A model generated the notes under the pieces. It was not told where the DNA came from, did not search any database, and was given only the letters and a program-made list of their open reading frames with translations. A stretch of DNA of 16,004 nt from Planctomycetota bacterium (GTDB lineage: Bacteria; Planctomycetota; UBA11346), in contig JACDEC010000017.1 of the NCBI GenBank assembly GCA_013816645.1, forward strand, positions 1 to 16,004. The letters run 5' to 3'. A program made the position numbers and the translations under genes. This document shows positions 1-13,036 of this stretch, one piece after another (the stretch's first letter is position 1; each line of letters starts with the position of its first letter).

Positions 1-921
1 ATCTTGAGCAGGGCGTCGCTCGGCGGCGATGCGTGCGCGAACGACTCGACGATCGTCGGGATGCCCAGGCCGATGTGCCGGGTGGTGCCCAAGGCCAGCA
101 CCGCGAGCGCGACCAGGATGCCGCCGACCACCAGCCGTCCGGGCATCCAGGCGATGGTCCGCTGGGCGAAGGCGCGGATGGCGCGGGTCAGCGCTGCGAA
201 AGCCAGCGCGGCCAGGCCGAAGACCGCGCCCGCGCCGACCGCGGCGAGGATCCCGAGCAGCGTCAGCGCCGGCACCGCGCCGGGGACGTACTCGGTGTGC
301 CGGACTCCGAACGCGATCGCCACCCGATCGCCGATCACCGCCGCGATCAGGCAGGGCAGGAGCGCGTCGCGGCGCATCGCGCCCAACGCGAGCACCTCGA
401 GCGCGAAGATCGCGCCGGCGATCGGCGTACCGAACACCGCGCCGAAACCACTGCTGACCCCGGCCATCAGCAGGATGCGCCGGGCGCGCTGGTCGAGGCG
501 CAGCGGGCGCGAGAGCTGATCGGCGAGCGACGCGCCCATCTGCAGCGCGGTGCCCTCGCGTCCCGCCGAGCCGCCGAACAGGTGGGTGGCCACGGTGCTG
601 ATCAGGATCATCGGCGCCATGCGCAGTGGCAGCCGGTGGCGCGGCTGATGGATCTCGGCGAGCACCAGCTCGCTGCCCGCTTCGACCGACCCGCCGAACC
701 AGTGGTAGGACAGCCCGATGACCAGTCCGGCCAACGGCAACAGCGCGATGATCCACGGGTGCTGCTCGCGCCACTCCGTCGCCCAATCCAATGCCGACAG
801 GAAGACCGCGCACGATCCGCCGGCGAGCACACCGACCGCCGCCGCGAGCAGCAGCCAGCGCAGCGCGGTCCGGGCGACGGCGAGCGGGTGCGCGAGCGGG
901 TGGGACACGAATGCCTTCATC
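1..921 (-). CDS. CLC-family anion channel / H+-coupled antiporter (EriC-like), N-terminal ~307 aa; the 3' end of the gene runs off the window start. The GREGT variant of the gating-glutamate motif suggests the fluoride-specific CLC-F subtype
   Basis: Manual minus-strand translation from ATG (complement of 919-921): MKAFVSHPLAHPLAVARTALRWLLLAAAVGVLAGG...HLFGGSAGREGTALQMGASLADQL...ILLMAGVSSGFGAVFGTPIAGAIFALEVLALG. These are the CLC hallmarks G(R/K)EG(P/T) and GxFxxPxxGxxFxxE. In-frame stop lies just upstream (complement of 934-936). The frame is open to position 1. It is not in the ORF track because no stop falls in the window. Confidence 0.8.
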
Positions 922-954
922 GAGCGGAGCGCTCAGTCGCGGGGAATGCTGCCG

Positions 955-1045
955 AGCGCCATGACAACGCTGGCTCGCCCCGGGTCAAGGTGGGCACGCT
1001 GCAGCATCCGATCGCCTGTCATGACAAACCCGTCCCGCCCGCATT
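955..1045. promoter_or_regulatory. Divergent promoter/operator region between the CLC gene and kbl. Holds two related ~22-bp direct repeats containing CATGACAA, and a perfect 10-bp palindrome TGTCATGACA
   Basis: ccATGACAAcgctggctCGCCCc at 959-981 and tcATGACAAacccgtcCCGCCCg at 1019-1041, 60 bp apart. TGTCATGACA at 1017-1026 is self-complementary. Confidence 0.25.
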
Positions 1046-1235
1046 GAGCGCCGACCGCGCGCGATCATCGTGACGCCGCATGACCGCCGCCGCGGCGCCC
1101 GCCCACTCGACGATCGCAGCGCAGGCAGCGACCGCTGACGAACTGTATCCGACGGCGGTGGCGGGAGCGGCGCGCGGCTGATCCGGCAGCCGGTTGGCAC
1201 GGTGGCATTCCCGCGCATGGCATTAGCGTTCGGCC

Positions 1236-2423
1236 ATGAACCAGCAGTTCCTCGACCACCTCCAGAGCGAGCTCGCCACGCTGCGCGAGACCGGCCTCTA
1301 CAAGCGCGAACGGGTGATCGCCTCGCCGCAGGCGGCGACGATCAGCGCGGAAGGCGCGCAGGTCGTCAACTTATGCGCCAACAACTACCTCGGCTTGGCC
1401 AACGACCACGAGCTCATCGTCGCGGCGACGCGCGCGCTGGACACCTACGGTTATGGCCTGGCTTCGGTGCGCTTCATCTGCGGCACCCAGACCGTGCATC
1501 GCGAACTGGAGAACCGGCTGGCCGCGTTCCTGCGGGTCGACGCGGCGATCCTCTACTCCTCGTGCTTCGACGCCAACGGCGGGCTGTTCGAGACCGTGCT
1601 CGGCGAGCAGGACGCGGTGATCTCGGATGCGCTCAACCACGCCTCGATCATCGACGGCATCCGCCTGTCCAAGGCCAAACGCTTCCGCTACGCCAACAAC
1701 GACATGACCGATCTGCGCCAGCAACTGGTCGCGGCCAAGGACTGCCGCTTCAAGATGATCGCCACCGACGGGGTGTTCTCGATGGACGGCACCATCGCCG
1801 ACCTCGCCGCGGTCTGCCAACTCGCCGACGAGCACGGCGCGCTGGTCATGGTCGACGACTCGCACGCCGTCGGCTTCATCGGCGCCAATGGTCGCGGCAC
1901 TCCCGAGCGCTGCGGCGTCGAGGGTCGCATCGACGTGCTCACCGGCACCTTCGGCAAGGCGCTCGGCGGGGCCTCGGGCGGCTACACCGCGGGCCGCGCG
2001 CCGATCGTCGAATGGCTGCGCCAGCGCTCGCGCCCGTACCTGTTCTCGAACACCCTCGCGCCCGCGATCGCCGCCACCACCCTGCGCGCGCTCGAACTGG
2101 TCGAGGCCGGCGCGGACCTGCGCGAGCGGCTGCGCGAGCGCACCCGCCAGTTCCGCGAGGGCATGGCCGGCCTGGGTTTCACCATCGTCCCCGGCGAGCA
2201 TCCGATCGTGCCGGTGATGCTCGGCGACGCGGTCCTCGCCCAGACCATGGCTGCGCGGCTGTTCAGCGCAGGCATCTACGCCGTCGGCTTCGCCTACCCC
2301 GTGGTGCCGATGGGCAAGGCGCGCATCCGCTGCCAGATCTCGGCCGCGCACAGCGCCGAGCACATCGACCTTGCCCTCGCAGCGTTTGCCAAGGTCGGCC
2401 GCGAACTGAAGATCATCGGCTGA
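1236..2423 (+). CDS. kbl: 2-amino-3-ketobutyrate CoA ligase (glycine C-acetyltransferase), PLP-dependent
   Basis: 395-aa ORF. Strong family resemblance: [39 protein letters not shown], and PLP-lysine motif TFGKALGG. Lies immediately upstream of tdh, as in the E. coli kbl-tdh operon. Confidence 0.95.
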
Positions 2424-2451
2424 CGCCAACCCTCTGCCGGTCAGGAACACC

Positions 2452-3483
2452 ATGACGACGATGAAGGCGCTGGTCAAAGCCAAGGCCGAGCCCGGCCTGT
2501 GGATGCAGGACGTGCCGATGCCCGAGATCGGGCCCAACGACCTGTTGATCCGCATGCGCAAAACCGCGATCTGCGGCACCGACCTGCACATCTTCGCCTG
2601 GGACGAGTGGGCGCGCCGGACCATCCCGGTGCCGATGGTCACCGGCCACGAATTCGTCGGCGTCGTCGACCAGGTGGGCTCGGCGGTGCGCGGTTTCGCT
2701 CCCGGCGACCGCGTCTCGGGCGAGGGCCACATCACCTGCGGCCATTGCCGCAACTGCCGCGCGGGACGCCGCCACCTCTGCCGCAACACCCAGGGCATCG
2801 GCGTCAACCGCACCGGCTGCTTCGGCGAATACCTGTCCCTACCCGCGGGCAACGCCTTCAAGCTGCCCGACGACATCAGCGACGAATTGGCGTCGATCTT
2901 CGACCCCTACGGCAACGCCACCCACACCGCGCTGTCCTTCGACCTGGTCGGCGAGGACGTGCTGATCACCGGCGCCGGACCGATCGGCTGCATGGCGGCG
3001 GCGATCGCCCGCCACGTCGGCGCCCGCAACGTGGTGGTCACCGACATCAACGACTACCGGCTCGCCCTGGCCACGCGCATGGGCGCGACGCGCACGGTCA
3101 ACACCGCCAAGACCCCGCTCGAGCCGGTGATGCGCGAACTCGGCATGGTCGAAGGCTTCGACGTCGGCCTGGAGATGTCGGGCAACGGCCAGGCATTCAC
3201 CGGGATGCTCGCGGCGATGAACCACGGCGGCCGCATCGCCATGCTCGGCATCCTGCCCGGTCAGGTCGCGATCGATTGGAGCACGGTGATCTTCAAAGGT
3301 CTGGTCATCAAGGGCATCTACGGCCGCGAGATGTTCGAGACCTGGTACAAGATGACCGCCATGCTGCAGAGCGGCCTCGATCTCTCGGCGGTGATCACCC
3401 ACCGCCTGCCGGTCGCGCGCTACCTCGACGGCTTCGCGGCGATGCAGACCGGGCAATCGGGCAAGGTCATCCTCGACTGGTGA
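2452..3483 (+). CDS. tdh: L-threonine 3-dehydrogenase (Zn-dependent MDR family)
   Basis: 343-aa [53 protein letters not shown], Cys-rich structural-Zn motif [15 protein letters not shown], and Rossmann motif [11 protein letters not shown]. It starts 28 bp after the kbl stop. AGGA sits 5 nt upstream of ATG 2452. ATG 2461 would give the E. coli-like MKAL N-terminus. Confidence 0.95.
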
Positions 3484-3637
3484 CCGAGCTGGCGTGACCG
3501 CCGCAACGCTTGCGACGTTCCGTGGACGCCGAGCCGGGTGACGCACGCGCACGGGAGCGCCCAGGCCCCCTGCGGTCCGCCCTACGCACCCCGGCAGGAT
3601 TGGCTGCTAATTCCGGGCCTCCGCGCGGGAACAGTCC

Positions 3638-4164
3638 ATGAGCATGCCATCGAACGATCCGGTCGAGCAGATGAACCTGCTGTTCCTGCGCCATGCGCAG
3701 GCCATCCGCGGTTTCATCGTCTGCCTCGTGGCGGGCGACCAGGGCCTGGCCGACGACGTGTTCCAGGAGGTCTTCCTGGTGGTCAGCAGGCGCGCCGCGG
3801 ACTTCCGTCCCGACGGCGACTTCACTGCCTGGGTGCGCGGGATCGCCCGCAACAAGCTGCTGGCCGTGCTGCGCCAACGGCGCCGTGGTTTCGCGCTCAG
3901 CGAGGACGTCCTGGAACTGCTCGCCGCCGAAGCGCCATCGGACGACGCCTGGGACCGCCATCAACGGGCGATACGCACCTGCCTGGATGGGCTGGCGCCG
4001 CGCGCGCGCGCGAACTGGCCGATCTGCGCTTCACCGAGGAACTCAAGCCCGCGGCGATCGCCGAGCGCGTGCATTGGACGATCAACGCGGTCAACGTCGC
4101 CCTGTCGCGCGTGCGTCGCCAGCTGCGCGATTGCTGCGAATGTCGCCTGGAGACCGAACGGTGA
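3638..4164 (+). pseudogene. ECF (sigma-24 / FecI-like) RNA polymerase sigma factor, interrupted as sequenced by a frameshift inside a (CG)7 tract. Region 2 is in frame 2 (3638-~4011) and region 4 is in frame 1 (~4012-4164)
   Basis: Frame 2 gives LLFLRHAQAIRGFIVCLVAGDQGLADDVFQEVFLVVSRRAADFRPDGDFTAWVRGIARNKLLAVLRQRRR, which is sigma region 2. Frame 1 gives ELADLRFTEELKPAAIAERVHWTINAVNVALSRVRRQLRDC, which is the region 4 HTH, ending at TGA 4162-4164. The two halves join at CGCGCGCGCGCGCG (3999-4012). Removing one CG unit, or adding one base, restores a ~175-aa ECF sigma. Confidence 0.8.
3999..4012. repeat. (CG)7 dinucleotide simple-sequence repeat at the frameshift point of the ECF sigma gene
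   Basis: Direct read of ccgCGCGCGCGCGCGCGaac. The sigma reading frame changes exactly here. Confidence 0.9.
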
Positions 4165-5468
4165 CCGGCGCGCAACGTTGCGATGCGCTGCTCGACGCCT
4201 GGCTCGACCAGGGGGACGAAACAGCCGCATCCGAACTCAACGCCCTGCTGCGCAGCGACCCCTCGGCGCGTGCGCGCTACTTCAGCGCGATGCTGGTCGA
4301 TGCCGGGATCCGCGCGGCGCTCAAGGACGCGTCGACCCACGTGCGCATCGACCGCCTGCGCCAATCGGGACGACGGCGCCTGCGCCGTCAGCGCCGCAGC
4401 GATGCCGGCCGGTATGCCGCCGCCGCGATCGCCGCCACCCTGATCGCCGCCATCGGCCTGATGATCGCGTCCAGCCGCGGCCAGCGCAGCGCGACACCGG
4501 GCGAGGCGCCGACCGTCGCCGTCCGACCCATCGAATCGAGCGTCGCGGTCGGCGCTGAAGACGTCATCGCCACCCGCACCGACGCCGGTCCGCATCGGGA
4601 GATCCGAGCAGGCGAGACCATCGCCACCGGCGATACCCCGGTGAGGCTGGTCCTGATCAGCGACCGCACGCGCATCGATCTCTCGGCCGGGACCAGCGCC
4701 CGGTTCGCGCGCGAACGCCAGGGCGTGCGCGTGCACCTCGAACACGGCGGCTTGTCCGCCGAGGTCATGCCGCGCACCGCTGATCGGCCGTTCGTGGTCG
4801 AGACTCCGCACGCCAACGCCTCCGTGGTCGGCACCGCGTTCAGCGTCGCTGTCACCGGCCACAGTACGGTGTCGGTCGGGCATGGAGTCGTCGACGTCGC
4901 CTCCGGTGGAGCGAGCGCCCGCCTGTCGGCCGGCGACGTGGCGGCCTGCGCCCGGGGCGAGGCTCCCCGCGTGGCGCGGCGGGTCGACCGGGTGCTCGAG
5001 GAACTCGCCGACCCGGGCGGCTGGAACAACTGCAGTCTCGACCTGCCCCTGGTCAGCGGCGTCGGCGGACTGGTCGGTGGGCGCTCCCTCCAGATCCATT
5101 TATCCAGCGAGCGATCCTGGGCGGGCGCGATCTTCGCCCAGCGCCAGGATTTCTCGCCATACCGCGGGCTCAGCCTGACCTGCCGAGGTCAAGGCACAGG
5201 CGCGCTGTTGCTGGTCGAGGTCCTCGACAATGGGCCCCCGCGGCAGCCTGGCGAGAAGGACCAGGCTGAACGATTCTTCGCCGACCTGGTCGATGACGTC
5301 GCGGGATGGCGCGAGGTGCGCATTCCCTTCACCGCGTTCAAGCGGCGCGAATTGCAGATGCCAGGTGCGGCGAACGATGGACTGACCCTCACCGGAACCC
5401 AGGGATTGTCGATCCTGACCAGTCGGGATACCACGCTGTCGCTCGAGCGGATCGGGCTTTACAAGTGA
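4161..5468 (+). CDS. FecR-family transmembrane anti-sigma factor with an additional ~150-aa periplasmic C-terminal beta-sandwich domain (possibly CIA30/CBM11-like)
   Basis: GTG start at 4161 overlaps the sigma-factor stop (GTGA), which implies translational coupling. The N-terminus VTGAQRCDALLDAWLDQGDETAASELNALLRSDPSARARYFSAMLV is a typical anti-sigma N-domain. One TM segment YAAAAIAATLIAAIGLMIA spans 4413-4469. The FecR domain reads RIDLSAGTSARFARE...VHLEHGGLSAEV...FVVETPHANASVVGTAFSV. The C-terminal region from ~5020 reads WNNCSLDLPLVSGVGGLVGGRS...GWREVRIPFTAFK...LSLERIGLYK. Same frame as ORF-track entry 3693..5468. Confidence 0.8.
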   Translation: MTGAQRCDALLDAWLDQGDETAASELNALLRSDPSARARYFSAMLVDAGIRAALKDASTHVRIDRLRQSGRRRLRRQRRSDAGRYAAAAIAATLIAAIGLMIASSRGQRSATPGEAPTVAVRPIESSVAVGAEDVIATRTDAGPHREIRAGETIATGDTPVRLVLISDRTRIDLSAGTSARFARERQGVRVHLEHGGLSAEVMPRTADRPFVVETPHANASVVGTAFSVAVTGHSTVSVGHGVVDVASGGASARLSAGDVAACARGEAPRVARRVDRVLEELADPGGWNNCSLDLPLVSGVGGLVGGRSLQIHLSSERSWAGAIFAQRQDFSPYRGLSLTCRGQGTGALLLVEVLDNGPPRQPGEKDQAERFFADLVDDVAGWREVRIPFTAFKRRELQMPGAANDGLTLTGTQGLSILTSRDTTLSLERIGLYK

Positions 5469-5565
5469 TGCGAGCGTTGCGCCGCGAGTGATGCACCCCG
5501 GACAGCGGGCGCAGCCCACCGGCTAAGCGACACCCGAGCCGCGGGAATCGACGGCGGAGGCCGCC

Positions 5566-8307
5566 GTGCACTTAGCCCCGAGCATCGCTTTGATCTGCTG
5601 CCTGATCGCCTCGGCGCCAGCCAGCGATTACTACGTCAGCACCAGCGGGAATGACGGCAACGCCGGGACCTCCATGGCGAGCCCGTGGCAAACCATCGCC
5701 AAGGTCAACACCAGCAATTTCGTCGCCGGCGATCGCGTGTTCTTCGCGGGCGGCCAGACCTTCACCAATCCTGGCCTGATGCTCGACGCTTCGGATACCG
5801 GCTCCGCGGCGAATCCGATCGTCATCGGCAGCTACGGGACCGGACGCGCGATCATCCGGGCCACGGGCAACGTCGACGGTCTGTTCATCTACAACACCGG
5901 CGGCGTGCGGATCCAGGATCTGATCGTCGAAGGACCGGGCGTCTCCTCCAGCACCAAGAGCGGCATCATCGCCTACTGCGATCTCGCCAATGGCAGCAAG
6001 CTCACGGGTCTCGCAATCGCCAACTGCGAAGCGCGGCAGTTCCGGAACGGCATCATCATCGGCGCGTGGCATGCTTCGTTCAGCGGCTTCTCGGGCGCGC
6101 TCGTCGAGAACTGCGTCGCGCACGACAACAGCCGCTCCGGCATCAGCAGCTACGGCTACACGACGACCTCGGCCGCGGTGCAATCGCATGCCAGCCTCAC
6201 TATCCGTGGCTGCGAAACCTACCTCAATCGTGGAGACCCCCTCCATACCGCGAACCACAGCGGCAGCGGCATCGTGGTCTCCGGCACCGTCGGCGGACTG
6301 GTCGACCAATGCTACGCCCACCACAACGGCGGATCCGCCGGCAATCCAGGCGGAGGCGGACCGGTCGGCATCTGGACCTACCAGTCCGACGGGGTGGTGA
6401 TCCAACGCTGCCTGGTGCACGACCAGAAGACCACCGCAGGCGTCAAGGACGGCGGCGGCTTCGATATCGACGGCGGCGCGGTCAATGCCGTGATCCAGTA
6501 CTGCTATTCCTACAACAACGAGGGTCCGGGTTACCTGATCTGCGAATACAGCGGCGCCGACGTGCCGGTCTCCGCGGCCACGATCCGCTATTGCCTGGGC
6601 TGGAACGACGCGCGCCGCAGGGCCAACGACCAGGGCGCTGGGTTCGATTTCTACAACGGGTATGACGGCGACCCGAGCAAACTCACGGGAGTGACCATCC
6701 ACAACAACCTGGTCTACGCCGATGCGGCCGTAGCCGGTGCGTGCGTCAAATGGGAGGGAGGCCCGCTGGCCAACGTCCGCTTCGCCAACAACATCTTCGT
6801 CGTCACCGGCGGATCACGGTTCGTCGACATCGCGGCGCACACCGCCGATTTCAGCTTCGTCGACAACGCCTATTTCTCCAGCGATGCCAATTATTCCGGT
6901 GGCTGGAAATGGAGCAGCCTGACCTACACCAGCCTGGATGCATGGCGGTCGGCATCAGGCGCGCCCGAGACCTGGAGCGGGTCCCCGGTCGGCATGCAAG
7001 CCGATCCCCTGCTCGCCAACGTGGTCGGAGGTGCGCAACCGACCTCGATCGCGGCGCTTGAATCGATCACCGCCTACCGACTGCTCGCAGGCTCGCCGTG
7101 CATCGACGCCGGGCAGGACCTGAGGACCGCGGCGTTCGGCAGCCGCACGGTCGGCAGCCGGGATTTCTTCAATCAGACGATCCCCCAGGGCGGGGCGTTC
7201 GACATCGGTGCGCACGAAACCACGCCGGCGACTGCGAACACCGCGCCGACCATCAGTCCGATCGATGGCCAGGCGATCCTCGAAGATGCGCCGACCGGCG
7301 CGATCGCCGTCACCATCGGCGATGCCGAAACCGCGGCCGGTTCGCTCACGCTCGCGGCTGCATCGTCCAACCCCACCCTGGTGCCGATCGCCAACGTGGT
7401 CTTCGCCGGTTCGTTCGCCAACCGCACGGCGACCGTGACCCCAGCCGCGGACCGCAATGGCCTCGCCACCATCACGGTCACCGTCACCGATGGTGGCGGG
7501 CTGACCGCCTCGCGATCATTCACCGTCAACGTCACCGCGGTCAATGACGAGCCCTCCTTCGTCCCGGGAGCCGACCAGAATACCTACGCGGGCGCCGGGG
7601 CGCAGACCGTGGCCAGTTGGGCGACCGCAATCAGCGCTGGGCCGACCGATGAAAGCGGGCAGACCCTGACCTTCCAGGTCAGCGCCAACAGCAATCCCGG
7701 CTTGTTCGCCACCGCTCCAGCGGTGTCCCCCGCGGGGACCTTGAGCTACACGCCCGCATCCAACGCCAATGGAACCGCCACCATCTCGCTCATGCTGGTC
7801 GACAACGGCGGCACGGCGAACGGCGGCGTGCAGGCCAGTGCGATGCAAACGTTCATGATCGCCTGCTCCCCGACGCCATTGCCCAACCTGGTCGTGTCGC
7901 GCAGTTCGGTGATCATCGGCTCGGGTGGGACCGATCGGTGCAGCGCTGCGCTCGGCGCCAATACCACCATCGCCTATGTCCTCGCCAACAGTGGCCAAGC
8001 CGTGCTGTCGATCGCCACCGCGACCGTGGTGGCGCACACCGGCTGCATCGCATCAGTCAGCGCTCTGCCCGCCGCATCGGTCGTCGCTGGTACGACCACG
8101 GGAATGGGCGTCGATGTGACGCCGCAAGCGGCGAACTGGTCATTCACCATAAGCGTGACTAGCAATGATCCCGACACGCCGAGCTACGCCTGGACGATCC
8201 GCAGCAGCACTTCCACAGTAAGCACCGCCGCCAAGCCCTGCGGCATCGGCAGCGGCATCGCCCTGGTCCTCAGCGCTCTGGCGCTGACCTTCTTTCGTCG
8301 CCACTGA
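5566..8307 (+). CDS. Secreted/surface right-handed parallel beta-helix (pectin-lyase-fold, PbH1-repeat) protein with two cadherin-like/Big-type VNDEP domains and a C-terminal sorting-signal-like tail
   Basis: 913 aa. GTG start at 5566 with GGAGG at 5556-5560. N-terminus MHLAPSIALICCLIASAPA|SDYYVSTSGNDGNAGTSMASPWQTIAKV is the DUF1565-like start of beta-helix proteins. PbH1-like repeats include NNxF...GGFDIDGG...YCYSYNNEGPGYLI. C-terminus of the helix domain is CIDAGQD...GGAFDIGAHE. From 7231 to 7870 there are two ~100-aa repeats carrying VNDEPSF. The tail AAKPCGIGSGIALVLSALALTFFRRH* spans 8233-8307. Confidence 0.8.
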   Translation: MHLAPSIALICCLIASAPASDYYVSTSGNDGNAGTSMASPWQTIAKVNTSNFVAGDRVFFAGGQTFTNPGLMLDASDTGSAANPIVIGSYGTGRAIIRATGNVDGLFIYNTGGVRIQDLIVEGPGVSSSTKSGIIAYCDLANGSKLTGLAIANCEARQFRNGIIIGAWHASFSGFSGALVENCVAHDNSRSGISSYGYTTTSAAVQSHASLTIRGCETYLNRGDPLHTANHSGSGIVVSGTVGGLVDQCYAHHNGGSAGNPGGGGPVGIWTYQSDGVVIQRCLVHDQKTTAGVKDGGGFDIDGGAVNAVIQYCYSYNNEGPGYLICEYSGADVPVSAATIRYCLGWNDARRRANDQGAGFDFYNGYDGDPSKLTGVTIHNNLVYADAAVAGACVKWEGGPLANVRFANNIFVVTGGSRFVDIAAHTADFSFVDNAYFSSDANYSGGWKWSSLTYTSLDAWRSASGAPETWSGSPVGMQADPLLANVVGGAQPTSIAALESITAYRLLAGSPCIDAGQDLRTAAFGSRTVGSRDFFNQTIPQGGAFDIGAHETTPATANTAPTISPIDGQAILEDAPTGAIAVTIGDAETAAGSLTLAAASSNPTLVPIANVVFAGSFANRTATVTPAADRNGLATITVTVTDGGGLTASRSFTVNVTAVNDEPSFVPGADQNTYAGAGAQTVASWATAISAGPTDESGQTLTFQVSANSNPGLFATAPAVSPAGTLSYTPASNANGTATISLMLVDNGGTANGGVQASAMQTFMIACSPTPLPNLVVSRSSVIIGSGGTDRCSAALGANTTIAYVLANSGQAVLSIATATVVAHTGCIASVSALPAASVVAGTTTGMGVDVTPQAANWSFTISVTSNDPDTPSYAWTIRSSTSTVSTAAKPCGIGSGIALVLSALALTFFRRH

Positions 8308-8664
8308 CGACCCCATCTGCGCATGTGCACCGAGTAGTGCTCCCTTGAGCGCCTCGATCCGTGCGTGGTGAGTCAAAACCCCCCGGTCCATCACTCGACG
8401 TAAGTACCATTCCTGGCGCAGCCGAGCCTATTTTCCCTGCCTCCGCTCGCAGCAGGCGGGAGCGAGGTCCGTTCCGACATTCGCGCGAATGATCGAACGT
8501 GTGCAGTGACGCTGCTGCACCTCCGTCGGCATGAATTACCAGCCCTACGTCATGAAAAATGCATCACCGACCGTATGATAGTGCTAGTTTAATCATTTAT
8601 CCGGCGTCCTAGGCTCTCGCGCCCTATTGGTTTCGTGCAAAAAGCGAAATCTCCTGGAGTCGCC
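8308..8664. promoter_or_regulatory. Long, comparatively AT-rich 5' leader and promoter region of the large adhesin gene. Contains imperfect palindromes gtgcagtgacgctgctgcac and tgatagtgctagtttaatca, and possible -10 TATGAT
   Basis: 357 bp with no convincing ORF and far lower GC than its surroundings (for example catgaaaaatgcatcaccgaccgtatgatagtgctagtttaatcatttatcc). It lies immediately upstream of ATG 8665, which has GGAG at 8656-8659. Confidence 0.3.
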
Positions 8665-10206
8665 ATGTTTGAGCCAGTCCGCCTGACCTCATCTTTCCTG
8701 TCCAGTCGGCTGATCGGCGCGGCTGCGCTGGCATTGGCGCTGCTCTGCGCTGCACCAGCTCACGCAGCGAATGTGCGCTGGGACGGTGGCGGCGCGGATG
8801 GCCAGTGGTCGAATCCGCTGAACTGGAAAAATGACGCGGTGCCGGGTTCCGGCGACAGCGTCGCCTTTCCGGCCAATTACGTGACAGCGCCGCTGGCGGT
8901 GAATCTCAGCGCGCCGGTCACCGTCGGCGCGCTCACCCTGGCGACGTCGAGCCCAGTGAGCTTCACCGGCGCCACGATCACCGTGAACAAGCGGATCGTC
9001 GTCAACTTCGGCAGTCACAGCATCGCCAATGCGATCGACGGGAAGAATGGATCCGATCTGCTGATCATCGTCGGCACCGGCAGCTCGCTCGCGCTCAGCG
9101 GCGCCATCTCGGTCAGCAACAACAAGATCCTGGCGCTGACCCGCGACGGTGCGGTGACGATGTCCGGGGCGCTCAGCGGCACGGGCGTGCAACTGGTCGT
9201 CGGCGGGGCGGGCAGCCTCACCCTGTCTGGTGCGAGCACCTATACCGGATCGACCAGCATCAATGGAGGCACCGTGATGGTCGTGGCCAACGCGCCGGTC
9301 TTGGCCGCGGGTCCGTTCGGCGACGCCGCATCCGCCATCAACATCGGCAATATCGTCACCGCCGCCAACATCTCGATCCATGCCGCCAACGGCGTGACGA
9401 TCGGCCGTCCCGTCACGGTCTCGGCGAATGCGACCGGAAGCGTCACCGTGGGGGCAGCGAGCGGCGCAGTCAGCTTCGCGGGCGCGATCACCCTCGAGCG
9501 CGGAGCCACCCTCAGCGCACCTGCCGGTGCCACAGCGACGTTCTCGGGAGCCATCAGCGGCGCAGGCTTCGGCGTGACCAAGAGCGGTGCCGGCACCGGC
9601 GCCCTGGACAACGCGCTCAACACCTACACCGGCGCCACCACGGTGGCGGCCGGCGTGCTGCTCGCCAATGGCGCGACCCAGGCGACCGGGACGGCCGTCA
9701 GCACGGTCACCGTCGCCAGTGGCGCCACCCTGGGCGGCGCCGGTCGGATTGCCGGCACTGTCAGCGTCGCTGCAGGCGGCACCCTGGCTCCCGGCAATGC
9801 CAGCGGCATCGGCACGCTCACCGTCAATGGCGACGTCACGGTGCCGGCTGGGGCAATCCTGCGCGTGCACCTCAATGGCGCCACGCCGAGCCAATCCGGC
9901 AAGCTGGCAGTCACTGCCGGCACGGTCTCGCTCGCAGGCAACCTGGTGGTCAACCTGAGCCCGGCCTCGGTGTTCTCCACCGGGTGGACCATCCTCGACA
10001 AAGGTGCCGCAGGCGCGATCTCTGGCACCTTCGCCGGCAAGCCCGAGGGCGCCGCCTTCGCGGCGAATGGCCGCGGACTGCAGATCACGTACGTCGCGGA
10101 ACCAACAGCAACGACATCCTGCTCGCTGATATCGGACCGACCACCAACCCGGAAGTCCTCAGCCTGTCCCCCGCCTTCGGCACCACGCGCGGCGGCGACA
10201 GCGTGA
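8665..10206 (+). CDS. Large surface adhesin, N-terminal segment as sequenced: signal peptide plus autotransporter-associated beta-strand (PATR) repeat region. The reading frame breaks near 10093-10100 and continues in frame 0 (see next feature)
   Basis: ATG 8665 with GGAG 5 nt upstream. The ORF track starts at GTG 8635. Signal peptide MFEPVRLTSSFLSSRLIGAAALALALLCAAPAHA|AN. Then WDGGGADGQWSNPLNWKNDAVPGSGDSVAF, repeated LTLSGASTYTGSTSINGGTV-type PATR units, and the typical passenger end GTLTVNGDVTV...GRGLQITYV. The last ~36 codons before the stop at 10206 (AEPTATTSCSL...) are off-frame garbage. Confidence 0.75.
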   Translation: MFEPVRLTSSFLSSRLIGAAALALALLCAAPAHAANVRWDGGGADGQWSNPLNWKNDAVPGSGDSVAFPANYVTAPLAVNLSAPVTVGALTLATSSPVSFTGATITVNKRIVVNFGSHSIANAIDGKNGSDLLIIVGTGSSLALSGAISVSNNKILALTRDGAVTMSGALSGTGVQLVVGGAGSLTLSGASTYTGSTSINGGTVMVVANAPVLAAGPFGDAASAINIGNIVTAANISIHAANGVTIGRPVTVSANATGSVTVGAASGAVSFAGAITLERGATLSAPAGATATFSGAISGAGFGVTKSGAGTGALDNALNTYTGATTVAAGVLLANGATQATGTAVSTVTVASGATLGGAGRIAGTVSVAAGGTLAPGNASGIGTLTVNGDVTVPAGAILRVHLNGATPSQSGKLAVTAGTVSLAGNLVVNLSPASVFSTGWTILDKGAAGAISGTFAGKPEGAAFAANGRGLQITYVAEPTATTSCSLISDRPPTRKSSACPPPSAPRAAATA

Positions 10207-12686
10207 CCCTCACCGGCCTGCTGCTCACCGGCCCGTCCGGCGGACTGACGCCCACGGTGAGCTTCGCGGGCGTGGCCGGGGCGGTCACCGCGTCGACCCC
10301 GACCTCGGTCACGGTGACCACGCCGGACCTGTCGATCGGCGCTTCGACCCAACTGGTGGATGTCGCGTTGACCGTCAACGGCAACACCTCGACCGTGCTG
10401 CTCGGCTTCGAGTACCGGCGTCCCGTCCTGACCGTCACCGCCGCCAACGCCTCCCGCATCCATGGCACGGCGAACCCGGCTTTCGGCGTGTCCTTCGCCG
10501 GATTGGTCGCGCCGGACAGCGATCCGCTCGCGGTGGTCAGCGGCACGGTGGCATACGCCACCGCTGCGACGCCCACCTCGTCACCGAACGGCTACGCCAT
10601 CGAGCCTTCGGGCCTGACCAGCGCCGACTACGCGATCGTGTACGTCAACGGCCTGCTCACCGTCACCCAGGCACCGCCGACCATCAACTGGTCGACGCCT
10701 GCGCCGATCGCTTACACGACGGGTGGCGCGGCCCTGCCGGCCAGCGCGCTCAACGCCACGATCAGCGACGTCAATCTCGGTCTCGCGCTGACCGACCCCA
10801 CCACCGGGACGATCGCCTATACGCCGGCCTCAGGCACGCTGCTCAACGCCGGGTCCCACGCGCTCACGGTGACCTACACGCCGCTGATCGACAGCGCCTA
10901 CGACGACAACTGCCTGCAGACCAGTGGAACGGTGTACCAGATCGTCACGGCGATCCCGGTGACCATCACCTGGGCCAATCCCGCCGACATCACCTATGGC
11001 ACCGCGCTGGATGCGTCGCAGCTGAACGCCACGAGCGGGGGCGTCCCTGGCAGCTTCATCTACACGCCCGCGTCGGGCATCCGATTGTCCGCCGGCGACG
11101 CCCAGACGCTCAGCACCACCTTCACCCCCAGCGACCCCAACTACGCGACCACCACCACGACGGCCACGATCGACGTGCTGGCCAAGGCGCTGACCATCAC
11201 CGCCGATGACGCCGCCAAGGTCTACGGCGCAGCCAATCCCGATTTCGCCGCATCCTACGACGGTTTCGTCACCGGCGACGACGAGGACGATCTCGGCGGA
11301 AGCCTCGCCTTCGCCACCAGCGCCGACGCCAGCAGCGCGGTCGGCGACTACGACGTCACCCCGAGCGGGCTGACCAGCACCAACTACGTGATCGCCTTCG
11401 CCGATGGTACCCTGTCGATCACCGCCAAGGCGCTGACCATCACCGCCGATGACGCCGCCAAGGTCTACGGCGCAGCCAATCCCGATTTCGCCGCATCCTA
11501 CGACGGTTTCGTCACCGGCGACGACGAGGACGATCTCGGCGGAAGCCTCGCCTTCGCCACCAGCGCCGACGCCAGCAGCGCGGTCGGCGACTACGACGTC
11601 ACCCCGAGCGGATCGACCAGCACCAACTACGCGATCACCTTCGCCGACGGCACCCTGTCGATCACCGCCAAGGCGCTGACCATCACCACCGTCAACTCCA
11701 CCAAGGTCTACGGCGAAGCCAATCCCGATTTCGCCGCATCCTACGACGGTTTCGTCACCGGCGACGACGAGGACGACCTGGGCGGGAGCCTCGCCTTCGC
11801 CACCAGCGCCGACGCCAGCAGCGCGATCGGCGACTACGCCGTCACCCCGAGCGGGCTGACCAGCACCAACTACGCGATCACCTTCGCCGATGGCACGCTC
11901 ACGGTCGGCGCCAGGACCCTGACCGTCACGACGAACGCGTGCTCCAAGGTCTATGGCGCGGCCAACTCGGACTTCGCGGTCAGCTATACGGGATTCGCCA
12001 TCGGCGACGACGTCAGCGACCTCGGCGGCCTCCTGGCCTTCACCACCACCGCCACCGCGGCCAGCGCGGTCGGCGCCTACGACGTCACCCCGGGCGGACT
12101 GACCAGCACCACGTACGCGATCACCTTCGTGAAGGGCACGCTCACCGTGACCAAGCAGGAGCTGGTGGTGACCGCCGATCACAAGCTCGTCGCCAAGGGC
12201 GCGACCATCATCCCGGCCTCGCTGACCTGGACCGCGACCGGCTTCGTCGCCGGCGACGGCGCGGGCAGCGCCTTCAGCGGAGCGCCCGAACTCGGGACCA
12301 GCGCTGACGCCGCCACCGTCGGCTCCTATCCCATCACCATCGCCATCGGCACGCTGGCTTCGACCAACTACAGCTTCTCGCTGGTCGGGGGCACACTCGA
12401 CGTCTACGTCCTGGATGTGACCAGCATCACGGTCAGCGGCACGATCACCGGCAGCAGCGCCACGACCGCGACGATCAGCTCCGGAACCATCACCAAGACC
12501 GGATCGACCTGGTCGGCGGCGGTCCCTCTGCCCGGCGCAACGTCCAGGACAGTGACGGTGCAGGCCCACGATCGCGGCAAGCATTCCACCCTGCTGCCGA
12601 TCACCATCGACGAGGGTGATGTCCCGGTGCCGAAACCGTCCTCCAGCCTGCCGCCTGTGCCGCTGATGCCCGCGGCGAAGGGATGA
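9984..12686 (+). CDS. Large surface adhesin, C-terminal segment (frame 0): IPT/TIG domain followed by ~8 MBG/YG-type repeat domains. Genuine codons begin about 10096. ATG 9984 and the following ~37 codons are an artefact of the frameshift
   Basis: Frame 0 from ~10096 reads GTNSNDILLADIG, which completes the PATR terminal ITYxGGxxNDxxL consensus. Then PEVLSLSPAFGTTRGGDSVTLTG...VSFAGVAGAVTASTPTSVTVTTP, which is IPT/TIG. Then repeated units such as KVYGAANPDFAASYDGFVTGDDEDDLGGSLAFATSADASSAVGDYDVTPSGLTSTNYAITFADGTLSIT, which are MBG/YG-type. There is no C-terminal beta-barrel translocator domain. Confidence 0.75.
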   Translation: MDHPRQRCRRRDLWHLRRQARGRRLRGEWPRTADHVRRGTNSNDILLADIGPTTNPEVLSLSPAFGTTRGGDSVTLTGLLLTGPSGGLTPTVSFAGVAGAVTASTPTSVTVTTPDLSIGASTQLVDVALTVNGNTSTVLLGFEYRRPVLTVTAANASRIHGTANPAFGVSFAGLVAPDSDPLAVVSGTVAYATAATPTSSPNGYAIEPSGLTSADYAIVYVNGLLTVTQAPPTINWSTPAPIAYTTGGAALPASALNATISDVNLGLALTDPTTGTIAYTPASGTLLNAGSHALTVTYTPLIDSAYDDNCLQTSGTVYQIVTAIPVTITWANPADITYGTALDASQLNATSGGVPGSFIYTPASGIRLSAGDAQTLSTTFTPSDPNYATTTTTATIDVLAKALTITADDAAKVYGAANPDFAASYDGFVTGDDEDDLGGSLAFATSADASSAVGDYDVTPSGLTSTNYVIAFADGTLSITAKALTITADDAAKVYGAANPDFAASYDGFVTGDDEDDLGGSLAFATSADASSAVGDYDVTPSGSTSTNYAITFADGTLSITAKALTITTVNSTKVYGEANPDFAASYDGFVTGDDEDDLGGSLAFATSADASSAIGDYAVTPSGLTSTNYAITFADGTLTVGARTLTVTTNACSKVYGAANSDFAVSYTGFAIGDDVSDLGGLLAFTTTATAASAVGAYDVTPGGLTSTTYAITFVKGTLTVTKQELVVTADHKLVAKGATIIPASLTWTATGFVAGDGAGSAFSGAPELGTSADAATVGSYPITIAIGTLASTNYSFSLVGGTLDVYVLDVTSITVSGTITGSSATTATISSGTITKTGSTWSAAVPLPGATSRTVTVQAHDRGKHSTLLPITIDEGDVPVPKPSSSLPPVPLMPAAKG
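11181..12152 (+). repeat. Four tandem 243-bp (81-codon) MBG-domain repeat units in the adhesin gene
   Basis: Units start at 11181, 11424, 11667 and 11910, all codon-aligned. Units 1 and 2 differ at only ~8 nt. Unit 3 is ~90% identical and unit 4 more diverged. A fifth, degenerate unit follows (~12153-12395). Confidence 0.85.
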
Positions 12687-13036
12687 ACATCATGAACTCC
12701 CGCAACGGATCGACTCTCATGCGCAGACTGCTCCTGAGCTTCGGCTCCCGCTTCACCCTCCTGTGCCTGATGGCGGCGGTGGCGACCACCGTGGGCTGCG
12801 GCGGTGGGGGAGGAGGCGGGGGTGGAGGCGTGACTCCCACGGTCTCGCTCGGCAGCGTGACGCTCTCCGGCCAGGTCGAGTTCCCCGGCACCGTCGAGGT
12901 GCAGGTCGATGGCGCACCCGCGGTGGTCTCGGGCACCACCTGGACCTTCACCACCACCCAGGTCACGGCGATACGACGTGACGATGAGCGAAGGGGGCAC
13001 GCTGCTCGCCCATCGGAGCGTGGTGGTTCACGCTAA
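12683..13036 (+). CDS. Small putative lipoprotein with a Gly10 linker. Start and 3' end are uncertain
   Basis: ATG 12683 overlaps the adhesin stop (ATGA). Alternative in-frame starts are ATG 12692 (AGGG ~9 nt upstream) and ATG 12719 (MRRLLLSFGSRFTLLCLMAAVATTVGC, a classical-length lipoprotein signal with lipobox-like TVG|C). The Cys codon is at 12797-12799, followed by GGGGGGGGGG (12800-12829) and then VTPTVSLGSVTLSGQVEFPGTVEVQVDGAPAVVSGTTWTFTTTQVTA. The last ~23 codons use rare codons (ata, cga, agg, ggg, tca), so the true C-terminus is doubtful. Confidence 0.5.
   Translation: MNIMNSRNGSTLMRRLLLSFGSRFTLLCLMAAVATTVGCGGGGGGGGGGVTPTVSLGSVTLSGQVEFPGTVEVQVDGAPAVVSGTTWTFTTTQVTAIRRDDERRGHAARPSERGGSR
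12800..12829 (+). repeat. (GGN)10 tract encoding a poly-glycine run. Contains two G5 homopolymer stretches
   Basis: Direct read: ggcggtgggggaggaggcgggggtggaggc. Confidence 0.9.

Follow-up and report, generated by a model that had tools for sequence, protein, structure and literature searches.

The DNA analyzed here is a complete contig of 16,004 nt from an uncultured planctomycete (hereafter, the window), with a G+C content of 68% and a GC3 of approximately 0.9. Its central feature is a three-gene cassette in the order sigma gene, FecR+CBM_11 anti-sigma gene, a spacer of ~64 nt, and a gene for a large beta-helix/Ig protein. Upstream of the cassette, positions 1236-3483 encode a kbl-like aminotransferase (395 aa) and a tdh-like zinc dehydrogenase (343 aa). 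A search with Rfam found no RNA families in the window. The features on which the analysis turns are the following:

3606 to 3611, + strand: GCTAAT, the window copy of a promoter-like GCTAAGT element, ~30 nt 5' of the sigma start
3638 to 4011, + strand: N-terminal part of an ECF sigma factor gene (region 2, linker, and first residues of region 4), in frame 2
3999 to 4012, + strand: (CG)7 tract, the site of the reading-frame change; the ancestral (CG)6 would read CCG CGC GCG CGC G, or P-R-A-R-(E)
4012 to 4164, + strand: C-terminal part of the ECF sigma factor gene (the remaining region 4), in frame 1, from GAA at 4012 to TGA at 4162-4164
4161 to 5468, + strand: intact gene for an anti-sigma factor of 435 aa, with a GTG start that overlaps the sigma stop (GTGA)
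5566 to 8307, + strand: gene for a beta-helix protein of 913 aa with right-handed beta-helix and cadherin/Ig-like domains, the third gene of the cassette
8665 to 10206, + strand: P0094 (MBA3683861.1), a protein with autotransporter-associated beta-strand repeats

As sequenced, the sigma gene has no uninterrupted open reading frame that carries both region 2 and region 4; the two domains lie in frames 2 and 1, respectively. In-frame ATGs are present at 3638 and 3644, and the latter is the likelier start, since the orthologues begin with MP.(D/E). In the GC3 frame plot, the coding signal moves to the other frame between ~3960 and ~4020. Searching with tblastn placed one sigma piece at 3644-4009 (residues 1-122, frame 2) and the other at 4003-4161 (residues 120-172, frame 1); the only positions they share lie within the tract. 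The tract itself, CGCGCGCGCGCGCG, is (CG)7 and spans exactly 3999-4012 of the + strand. The sequence, the GC3 plot, and the tblastn ranges all confirm what the first-pass annotation had reported, namely a (CG)7 run with a frame change inside it. That annotation had also described region 2 (frame 2) and region 4 (frame 1) as both intact and joining at the tract. The frames and the point of joining stand, but the tract codes for residues ~121-125, so the break lies within the first helix of region 4 and not in the interdomain linker.

Taking one CG unit out of the tract yields ...LAPRARELADLRFTEE... and a protein of 174 aa. In this repaired protein, Pfam identified Sigma70_r2 at residues 15-83 and Sigma70_r4_2 at residues 110-162. 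The sequence with one CG removed, and only that sequence, matched TIGR02989, the ECF sigma 'Rhodopirellula/Verrucomicrobium family' of NCBIfam, at 126.8 bits (NCBIfam cutoff 124.55) over profile positions 4-157 of 158. The full-length match and the presence of both Pfam domains support the earlier statement that removal of one unit gives a normal ECF sigma factor. Left unrepaired, the frame-2 ORF (306 aa) continues to 4558, over the start of the anti-sigma gene.

The anti-sigma protein begins with an anti-sigma segment and ends with a CBM_11-like domain; between them lie a transmembrane helix and a FecR domain. As had been noted earlier, the GTG at which its gene starts (4161) shares bases with the sigma stop codon, the two together reading GTGA, and a 4-nt overlap of sigma and anti-sigma genes (ATGA or GTGA) is kept in all orthologous loci examined. 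A GGAG is located 12 nt 5' of the GTG and could let anti-sigma translation start independently. A FecR-domain anti-sigma gene also lies immediately downstream in loci L085-L095. The cassette as a whole (window 3638-8307; L085-L095) is conserved in several Planctomycetota, in differing genomic neighborhoods. In L082, an Ogt-like methyltransferase gene stands upstream instead of tdh, so the synteny of the cassette does not extend to its flanks. Judged by conserved gene order alone, the beta-helix gene at 5566-8307 is the probable target of the sigma factor. The carbohydrate-binding-like sensor domain of the anti-sigma factor suggests that it may sense polysaccharides, much as RsgI-type anti-sigma factors do.

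In orthologous loci, GCTAAGT is found ~30 nt 5' of both the sigma and the beta-helix starts (upstream regions of L082, L085, L088, and L092). The window copies of this element (GCTAAT/GCTAAG) are at 3606-3611 and 5522-5527. Three intergenic copies of GCTAAK are also found in the window, at 1222(-), 13032(+), and 13079(-), and another, at 5571(-), falls just within the 5' end of the beta-helix gene, giving 6 matches against 2.35 expected. GCTAAK was considered as a sigma-specific promoter and set aside, since it is present in intergenic regions elsewhere on the contig as well. In these organisms, it is probably a promoter element of a general, -10-like type, one not specific to the sigma factor.

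Apart from the (CG)7 at 3999-4012, no dinucleotide tract in the 16,004-nt window exceeds 4 units, and no homopolymer is longer than 6; runs of (CG)4 lie at 1056, 1429, and 4706. Dinucleotide-preserving shuffles contained a mean of 0.07 tracts of more than 4 units per window, with at least one in 10 of 200 shuffles, so the presence of the tract by itself is only mildly unusual. The chance that a randomly placed frameshift falls in the 14-nt tract is ~14/16004. The tract is situated ~70% along the sigma ORF, away from the 5' end. A single-stranded DNA hairpin formed from it was no more stable than one from shuffled sequence.

The repaired sigma factor was searched against 5.8 billion proteins, and 93 homologues were recovered, the ten closest at 56-82% identity. 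No protein in that set was more than 82% identical to it, which means that no intact allele of the strain is on record. Among 95 homologue-carrying loci, the split sigma gene was found only in the window and in L001, a contig of a second assembly described below. A profile scan of genome contigs with the sigma alignment gave nothing above 52% identity among the matches listed, and the exact tract flanks, with any tract length between them, had no match in JGI metagenomes. In the ten close homologues and three more distant ones, the junction reads LAPRARE(L/I) without a gap, with one A-T-R-A-R-E and one S-P-R-A-R-E as variants. Because the homologues cross the junction gap-free, (CG)6 is the ancestral length: the -2 repair is the ancestral reading, and (CG)7 is a derived state, one unit longer. 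The alternative, a +1 repair, would give a protein with one residue more and without E125, which is nearly invariant.

The coding of the motif was compared in the DNA of 13 orthologous loci:

L082/83 (closest homologue): GCG CCC CGC GCC CGC GAA, a CG run of 2 units
L085-87: GCG CCA CGC GCA CGT GAA, a CG run of 2 units
L088-91: GC(C/T) CCA CGT GCG CGC GAA, a CG run of 3 units
L094/95: GCC CCG CGC GCG CGT GAG, (CG)5
L092/93: GCC CCG CGC GCG CGC GAG, (CG)6 with the frame intact

Orthologues with (CG)6, for which the first-pass annotation had proposed a search, thus exist: L092 and L093 carry it at exactly the same position in an intact frame. Inside the CG run, a synonymous CGC/CGT difference separates alleles that encode one and the same orthologous protein. 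In the codon usage of the contig, Pro is written CCG at a frequency of 0.55, Arg as CGC at 0.71, and Ala as GCG at 0.39. From these values, P-R-A-R is written CCG CGC GCG CGC (which, with the following G of Glu, makes (CG)6) with P ~0.11. Since codon bias alone gives P = 0.11, and since the runs of the orthologues vary from 2 to 6 units with synonymous interruptions, the comparison argues that the CG repeat is a by-product of the conserved APRARE peptide and codon bias and is not maintained as a repeat. A metagenome scan for (CG)5-7 loci was intended to show if further sigma genes have undergone the slip and gave no such evidence: at least 120 loci had (CG)5-7 in a P-R-A-R-E-L..LR-like context, and in none of those listed did an HMM search find a sigma homologue.

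A full-length sigma factor could in theory still be made from the gene as it stands, through a programmed +2 (= -1) slip of tRNA-Arg from CGC 4001-4003 to CGC 4003-4005, or through slippage of RNA polymerase. A 2-nt slip on a dinucleotide repeat would keep codon-anticodon pairing perfect and would give exactly ...LAPRAREL.... However, the homologues are all encoded in one frame, so that a shift is not conserved; a canonical slippery heptamer (X XXY YYZ) is absent; and the 88 nt downstream (4013-4100) fold more weakly than shuffled sequence (z = +1.19). Moreover, we know of no established mechanism for efficient +2 slips or for transcriptional slippage on CG dinucleotides. Based on the single-frame homologues, the missing heptamer, and the weak downstream fold, programmed frameshifting was rejected as improbable in the extreme.

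The reading frame of the gene is intact only at n = 3, 6, or 9 CG units, so a change of one unit switches the frame. This is the behavior expected if (CG)n were an evolved contingency locus, maintained so that the sigma factor and its regulon can be turned on and off reversibly, and if the assemblies had caught it in the OFF phase. In-ORF dinucleotide tracts in which each unit changes the frame are known from Helicobacter pylori oipA, with (CT)n (PMC10564699), and from M.MmyCI of Mycoplasma mycoides, with (AG)12 (PMC3498834). That (CG)7 is the longest dinucleotide repeat on the contig, that neither the downstream sequence nor the anti-sigma gene has decayed, and that the putative target genes encode surface or secreted proteins, a class often phase-varied, would also fit such a switch. 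Set against these points, the conserved peptide and codon bias account for the repeat; the repeat is not conserved as such among the orthologues; its length is the same in both assemblies; it lies in the last third of the gene and not near the 5' end; the contig has no further long repeat; and the neighboring broken gene is disrupted at a site that is not a repeat. Six or seven units would also be short for a known dinucleotide switch. The proposal of a reversible on/off switch, one of three put forward from the sequence at the outset, is consequently unsupported, and we regard an evolved switch as improbable. The more specific proposition, a working (CG)n switch in APRARE that stochastically toggles the ECF sigma/anti-sigma/beta-helix cassette of a free-living planctomycete, has very little probability in our judgment. 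In the literature, a search for phase-variable ECF sigma factors gave no paper with the term 'ECF sigma' among those listed. The tract is more probably a hot spot that arose incidentally than a contingency locus shaped by evolution.

A second public assembly, GCA_020064125.1, was found through an exact match to the Tdh protein. A single SNP separates its contig JAITZQ010036488.1 (L001, 4,397 nt) from window positions 30-4426, and the tract there is likewise (CG)7; no gene is annotated in it between tdh and the anti-sigma gene. Another of its contigs (L084, 6,871 nt) is identical to window positions 4437-11307, so the window and the second assembly differ by 1 SNP in 11.2 kb. Exact-protein matches to the second assembly were obtained for tdh, kbl, and P0094, and exact-protein look-ups of the anti-sigma protein, the 306-aa ORF as it stands, and the Band-7 protein gave no match. 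The assembly and protein accessions likewise had no match in the literature. Where the anti-sigma gene encodes its transmembrane segment, window positions 4416-4452 hold a 15-nt tandem repeat (GCCGCCACCCTGATC, 2.5 copies), and the contigs of GCA_020064125.1 break exactly there, between window positions 4426 and 4437. The two assemblies are not mere copies of one another, as their contig ends differ and there is one consensus difference between them. Because they are nearly identical, they may have been built on overlapping reads and are then not fully independent. The tract is (CG)7 in 2 of 2 assemblies of the strain, each count being that of a consensus sequence only.

A second interruption of a reading frame was found near position 10098. 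One ORF, 8635-10206, is in frame 1 and another, 9984-12686, is in frame 3; they share 222 nt, and the frame favored by GC3 shifts near 10020-10140. With a slash marking the junction, frame 1 reads ...GLQITYVA/EPTATT... and frame 3 reads .../GTNSNDILLADIGPTTNPEVLSLSP.... Homologues of the autotransporter-associated beta-strand repeat module end in ...(I/V)SY..G.GGND(I/V).L; here, the conserved motif ...ITYVA/GTNSNDILL... is split between frames 1 and 3. BLASTP alignments to P0115 and P0136 span the junction, with ITYVAGTNSNDILL against VSYTSGTGGNDILL and IDYIGG-DGNDIVL. The part downstream of the break encodes an IPT/TIG domain plus six MBG domains, and the IPT/TIG domain starts at ~10149, upstream of the gene start called in the second assembly (window 10203; L084 5767). 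Because the motif is split between the frames, the BLASTP alignments cross the junction, and the IPT/TIG domain begins upstream of the called start, 8635-12686 is best read as one gene of ~1,350 aa whose frame has been disrupted by an indel of 1 nt at GCG/GAA (10096-10100). The break is at a GG site that is not a repeat, which rules out phase variation for it, and it is also present in the second assembly (L084). This second frameshift raises the suspicion of imperfect data and equally fits relaxed selection on a surface-protein locus.

Farther along the same large surface protein, window positions 11181-12129 form a 243-nt tandem repeat (3.9 copies, 88% identity) that encodes near-identical MBG domains. 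It is followed at 12683-13036 by a small putative lipoprotein gene, in which a signal peptide precedes CGGGGGGGGGG, written with mixed GGN codons. The GC3 signal of this gene weakens after ~12900, and its 3' end is tentative.

With both breaks in view, the option of a sequencing or assembly error, raised at the outset, can be weighed. Under this reading, the sigma gene of the organism itself would be intact, with (CG)6, and one CG unit would have been added when the consensus was built, in a region of extreme GC content and probably low coverage. The part of region 4 beyond the tract is perfectly preserved, as would be expected of an intact gene, and two frameshifts in ~10 genes are many, the second being a single-base one in a GG context. 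Modest coverage is suggested by the division of the region into contigs of 4-7 kb in the second assembly. That assembly, identical over 6.9 kb and with 1 SNP over 4.4 kb, may also share both reads and errors with the metagenome-assembled genome (MAG). On the other side, (CG)7 and the second frameshift are present in both assemblies despite their different contig boundaries and one consensus difference. Long ORFs of 913, 668, 435, 395, and 343 aa, and one of ~860 aa after the second break, are uninterrupted, which implies an indel rate well under that of raw long-read assemblies. Finally, 2-nt insertions in 12-nt dinucleotide runs are not typical of short-read consensus errors. The artefact option is thus weakened by the (CG)7 of the second assembly, yet the assemblies may share reads; we consider it unlikely, though it carries appreciable weight.

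Beyond the tract, region 4 is well conserved. All 15 of the 15 positions that are invariant in the 13 homologues are kept, as are 23 of the 24 positions conserved in at least 11 of the 13, and no further decay was detected in region 4 downstream of the tract (extra stops, indels, or loss of conserved residues). Relative to the closest homologue, dN/dS was 0.15 upstream of the tract and 0.36 downstream, the latter value coming from 47 codons only. Most of the divergence behind these values is older than the frameshift, and the contrast between them is not decisive. Because region 4 is undecayed and the anti-sigma gene is intact, the frameshift, provided that it is real, appears to be recent. 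An undecayed region 4 is equally expected of an artefact or of a frequently reverting switch.

Taking these lines of evidence together, we favor, with a probability of roughly 60%, a real, recent, and incidental slippage mutation that inactivated one ECF sigma gene, leaving a null allele or young pseudogene. A recent inactivating mutation had been among the options named by the first-pass annotation, and it is the one best supported, by the derived additional CG unit, the retention of the invariant region 4 positions (15/15), and the intact anti-sigma gene. The proposed course of events begins with the APRARE peptide, whose GC-rich codons (GCG CCG CGC GCG CGC GAA) would have created a (CG)6 run by accident. 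Replication slippage (slipped-strand mispairing) at (CG)6 would then have added one CG unit, or +2 nt. Comparative genomics has found that the indel variability of dimeric repeats climbs steeply with length and that selection generally acts against repeats of at least ~10 bp (PMC3315296); a dimeric repeat of 12-14 bp is present here. From the longer tract, translation would depart from the sigma frame after residue ~124 and add ~180 out-of-frame residues before the stop at 4558, giving a product without nearly all of region 4. In the sigma-70 family, region 4 contacts the -35 promoter element. With this recognition module lost, the sigma factor is, we infer, inactive.

Two further consequences would be expected of the favored mutation. 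Ribosomes would no longer stop at the GTGA overlap, which would disturb the coupled start of the anti-sigma gene. The earlier suggestion that translational coupling would be affected is sound in this sense, as the frame-2 ORF runs to 4558 across the anti-sigma start. In addition, the target of the cassette, probably the beta-helix protein, would no longer be inducible via the sigma factor. The frame would be restored at n = 6, the wild type, or at n = 3 or 9 with two residues fewer or more, respectively, so that reversion would be possible in principle.

The locus illustrates how a conserved peptide motif and extreme codon bias can produce a mutational hot spot within a regulator. For annotation, the sigma locus and its neighbor at ~10098 are better treated as frameshifted genes than as separate ORFs. 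Should a stable mixture of tract lengths prove true, it would extend repeat-driven phase variation to the ECF regulons of environmental Planctomycetota; a true switch would mean that a bacterium which is environmental and non-pathogenic phase-varies an ECF regulon by way of a CG dinucleotide repeat.

Compared with the TIGR02989 ECF sigma factors that have FecR-type anti-sigma partners, the repaired protein fits the family model over its whole length, whereas the gene as sequenced is unable to yield a family member. The coupling of the sigma gene to a FecR-domain anti-sigma gene by a 4-nt overlap is like that of the orthologous cassettes. The tract resembles those of oipA, (CT)n, and M.MmyCI, (AG)12, in being an in-ORF dinucleotide run in which one unit shifts the frame and truncates the product and the opposite slip reverts it. 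Those tracts, however, are longer and 5'-proximal; they are kept as repeats, and their lengths differ between cells and between strains. By contrast, (CG)7 is short, sits in the last third of its gene, stems from a conserved peptide written in biased codons, is not conserved among orthologues, and does not vary between the two assemblies.

Further parallels are found among mutational hot spots. In Escherichia coli, (CG)n and NarI-type sequences are hot spots of -2/+2 frameshifts and of Z-DNA deletions, and alternating CG runs slip by two bases. The slip of 2 nt in a CG run is common to these sites and the present one; the former are laboratory mutagenesis systems (the NarI context is discussed in PMC4245952), and (CG)7 is a natural allele in an environmental genome. 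As for short repeats that exist for coding reasons, the tract is comparable to those of mucA22 and glpK, which act as recurrent or reversible frameshift sites in high-GC bacteria. The mucA22 allele of Pseudomonas aeruginosa has lost one G from a G5 run, mucA encoding the anti-sigma factor of the ECF factor AlgU, and the 7C tract of glpK is a repeat frameshift site in Mycobacterium tuberculosis. Repeat indels of M. tuberculosis are covered in PMC13596474. An ECF sigma/anti-sigma pair is affected both in mucA22 and here. The mucA22 and glpK sites are homopolymers with recurrence in many isolates, whereas the present event concerns a CG dinucleotide run, the sigma gene itself, and one lineage. 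The event is a further instance of a well-known kind, a frameshifted copy in the large paralogous family of ECF sigma factors, seen in a MAG.
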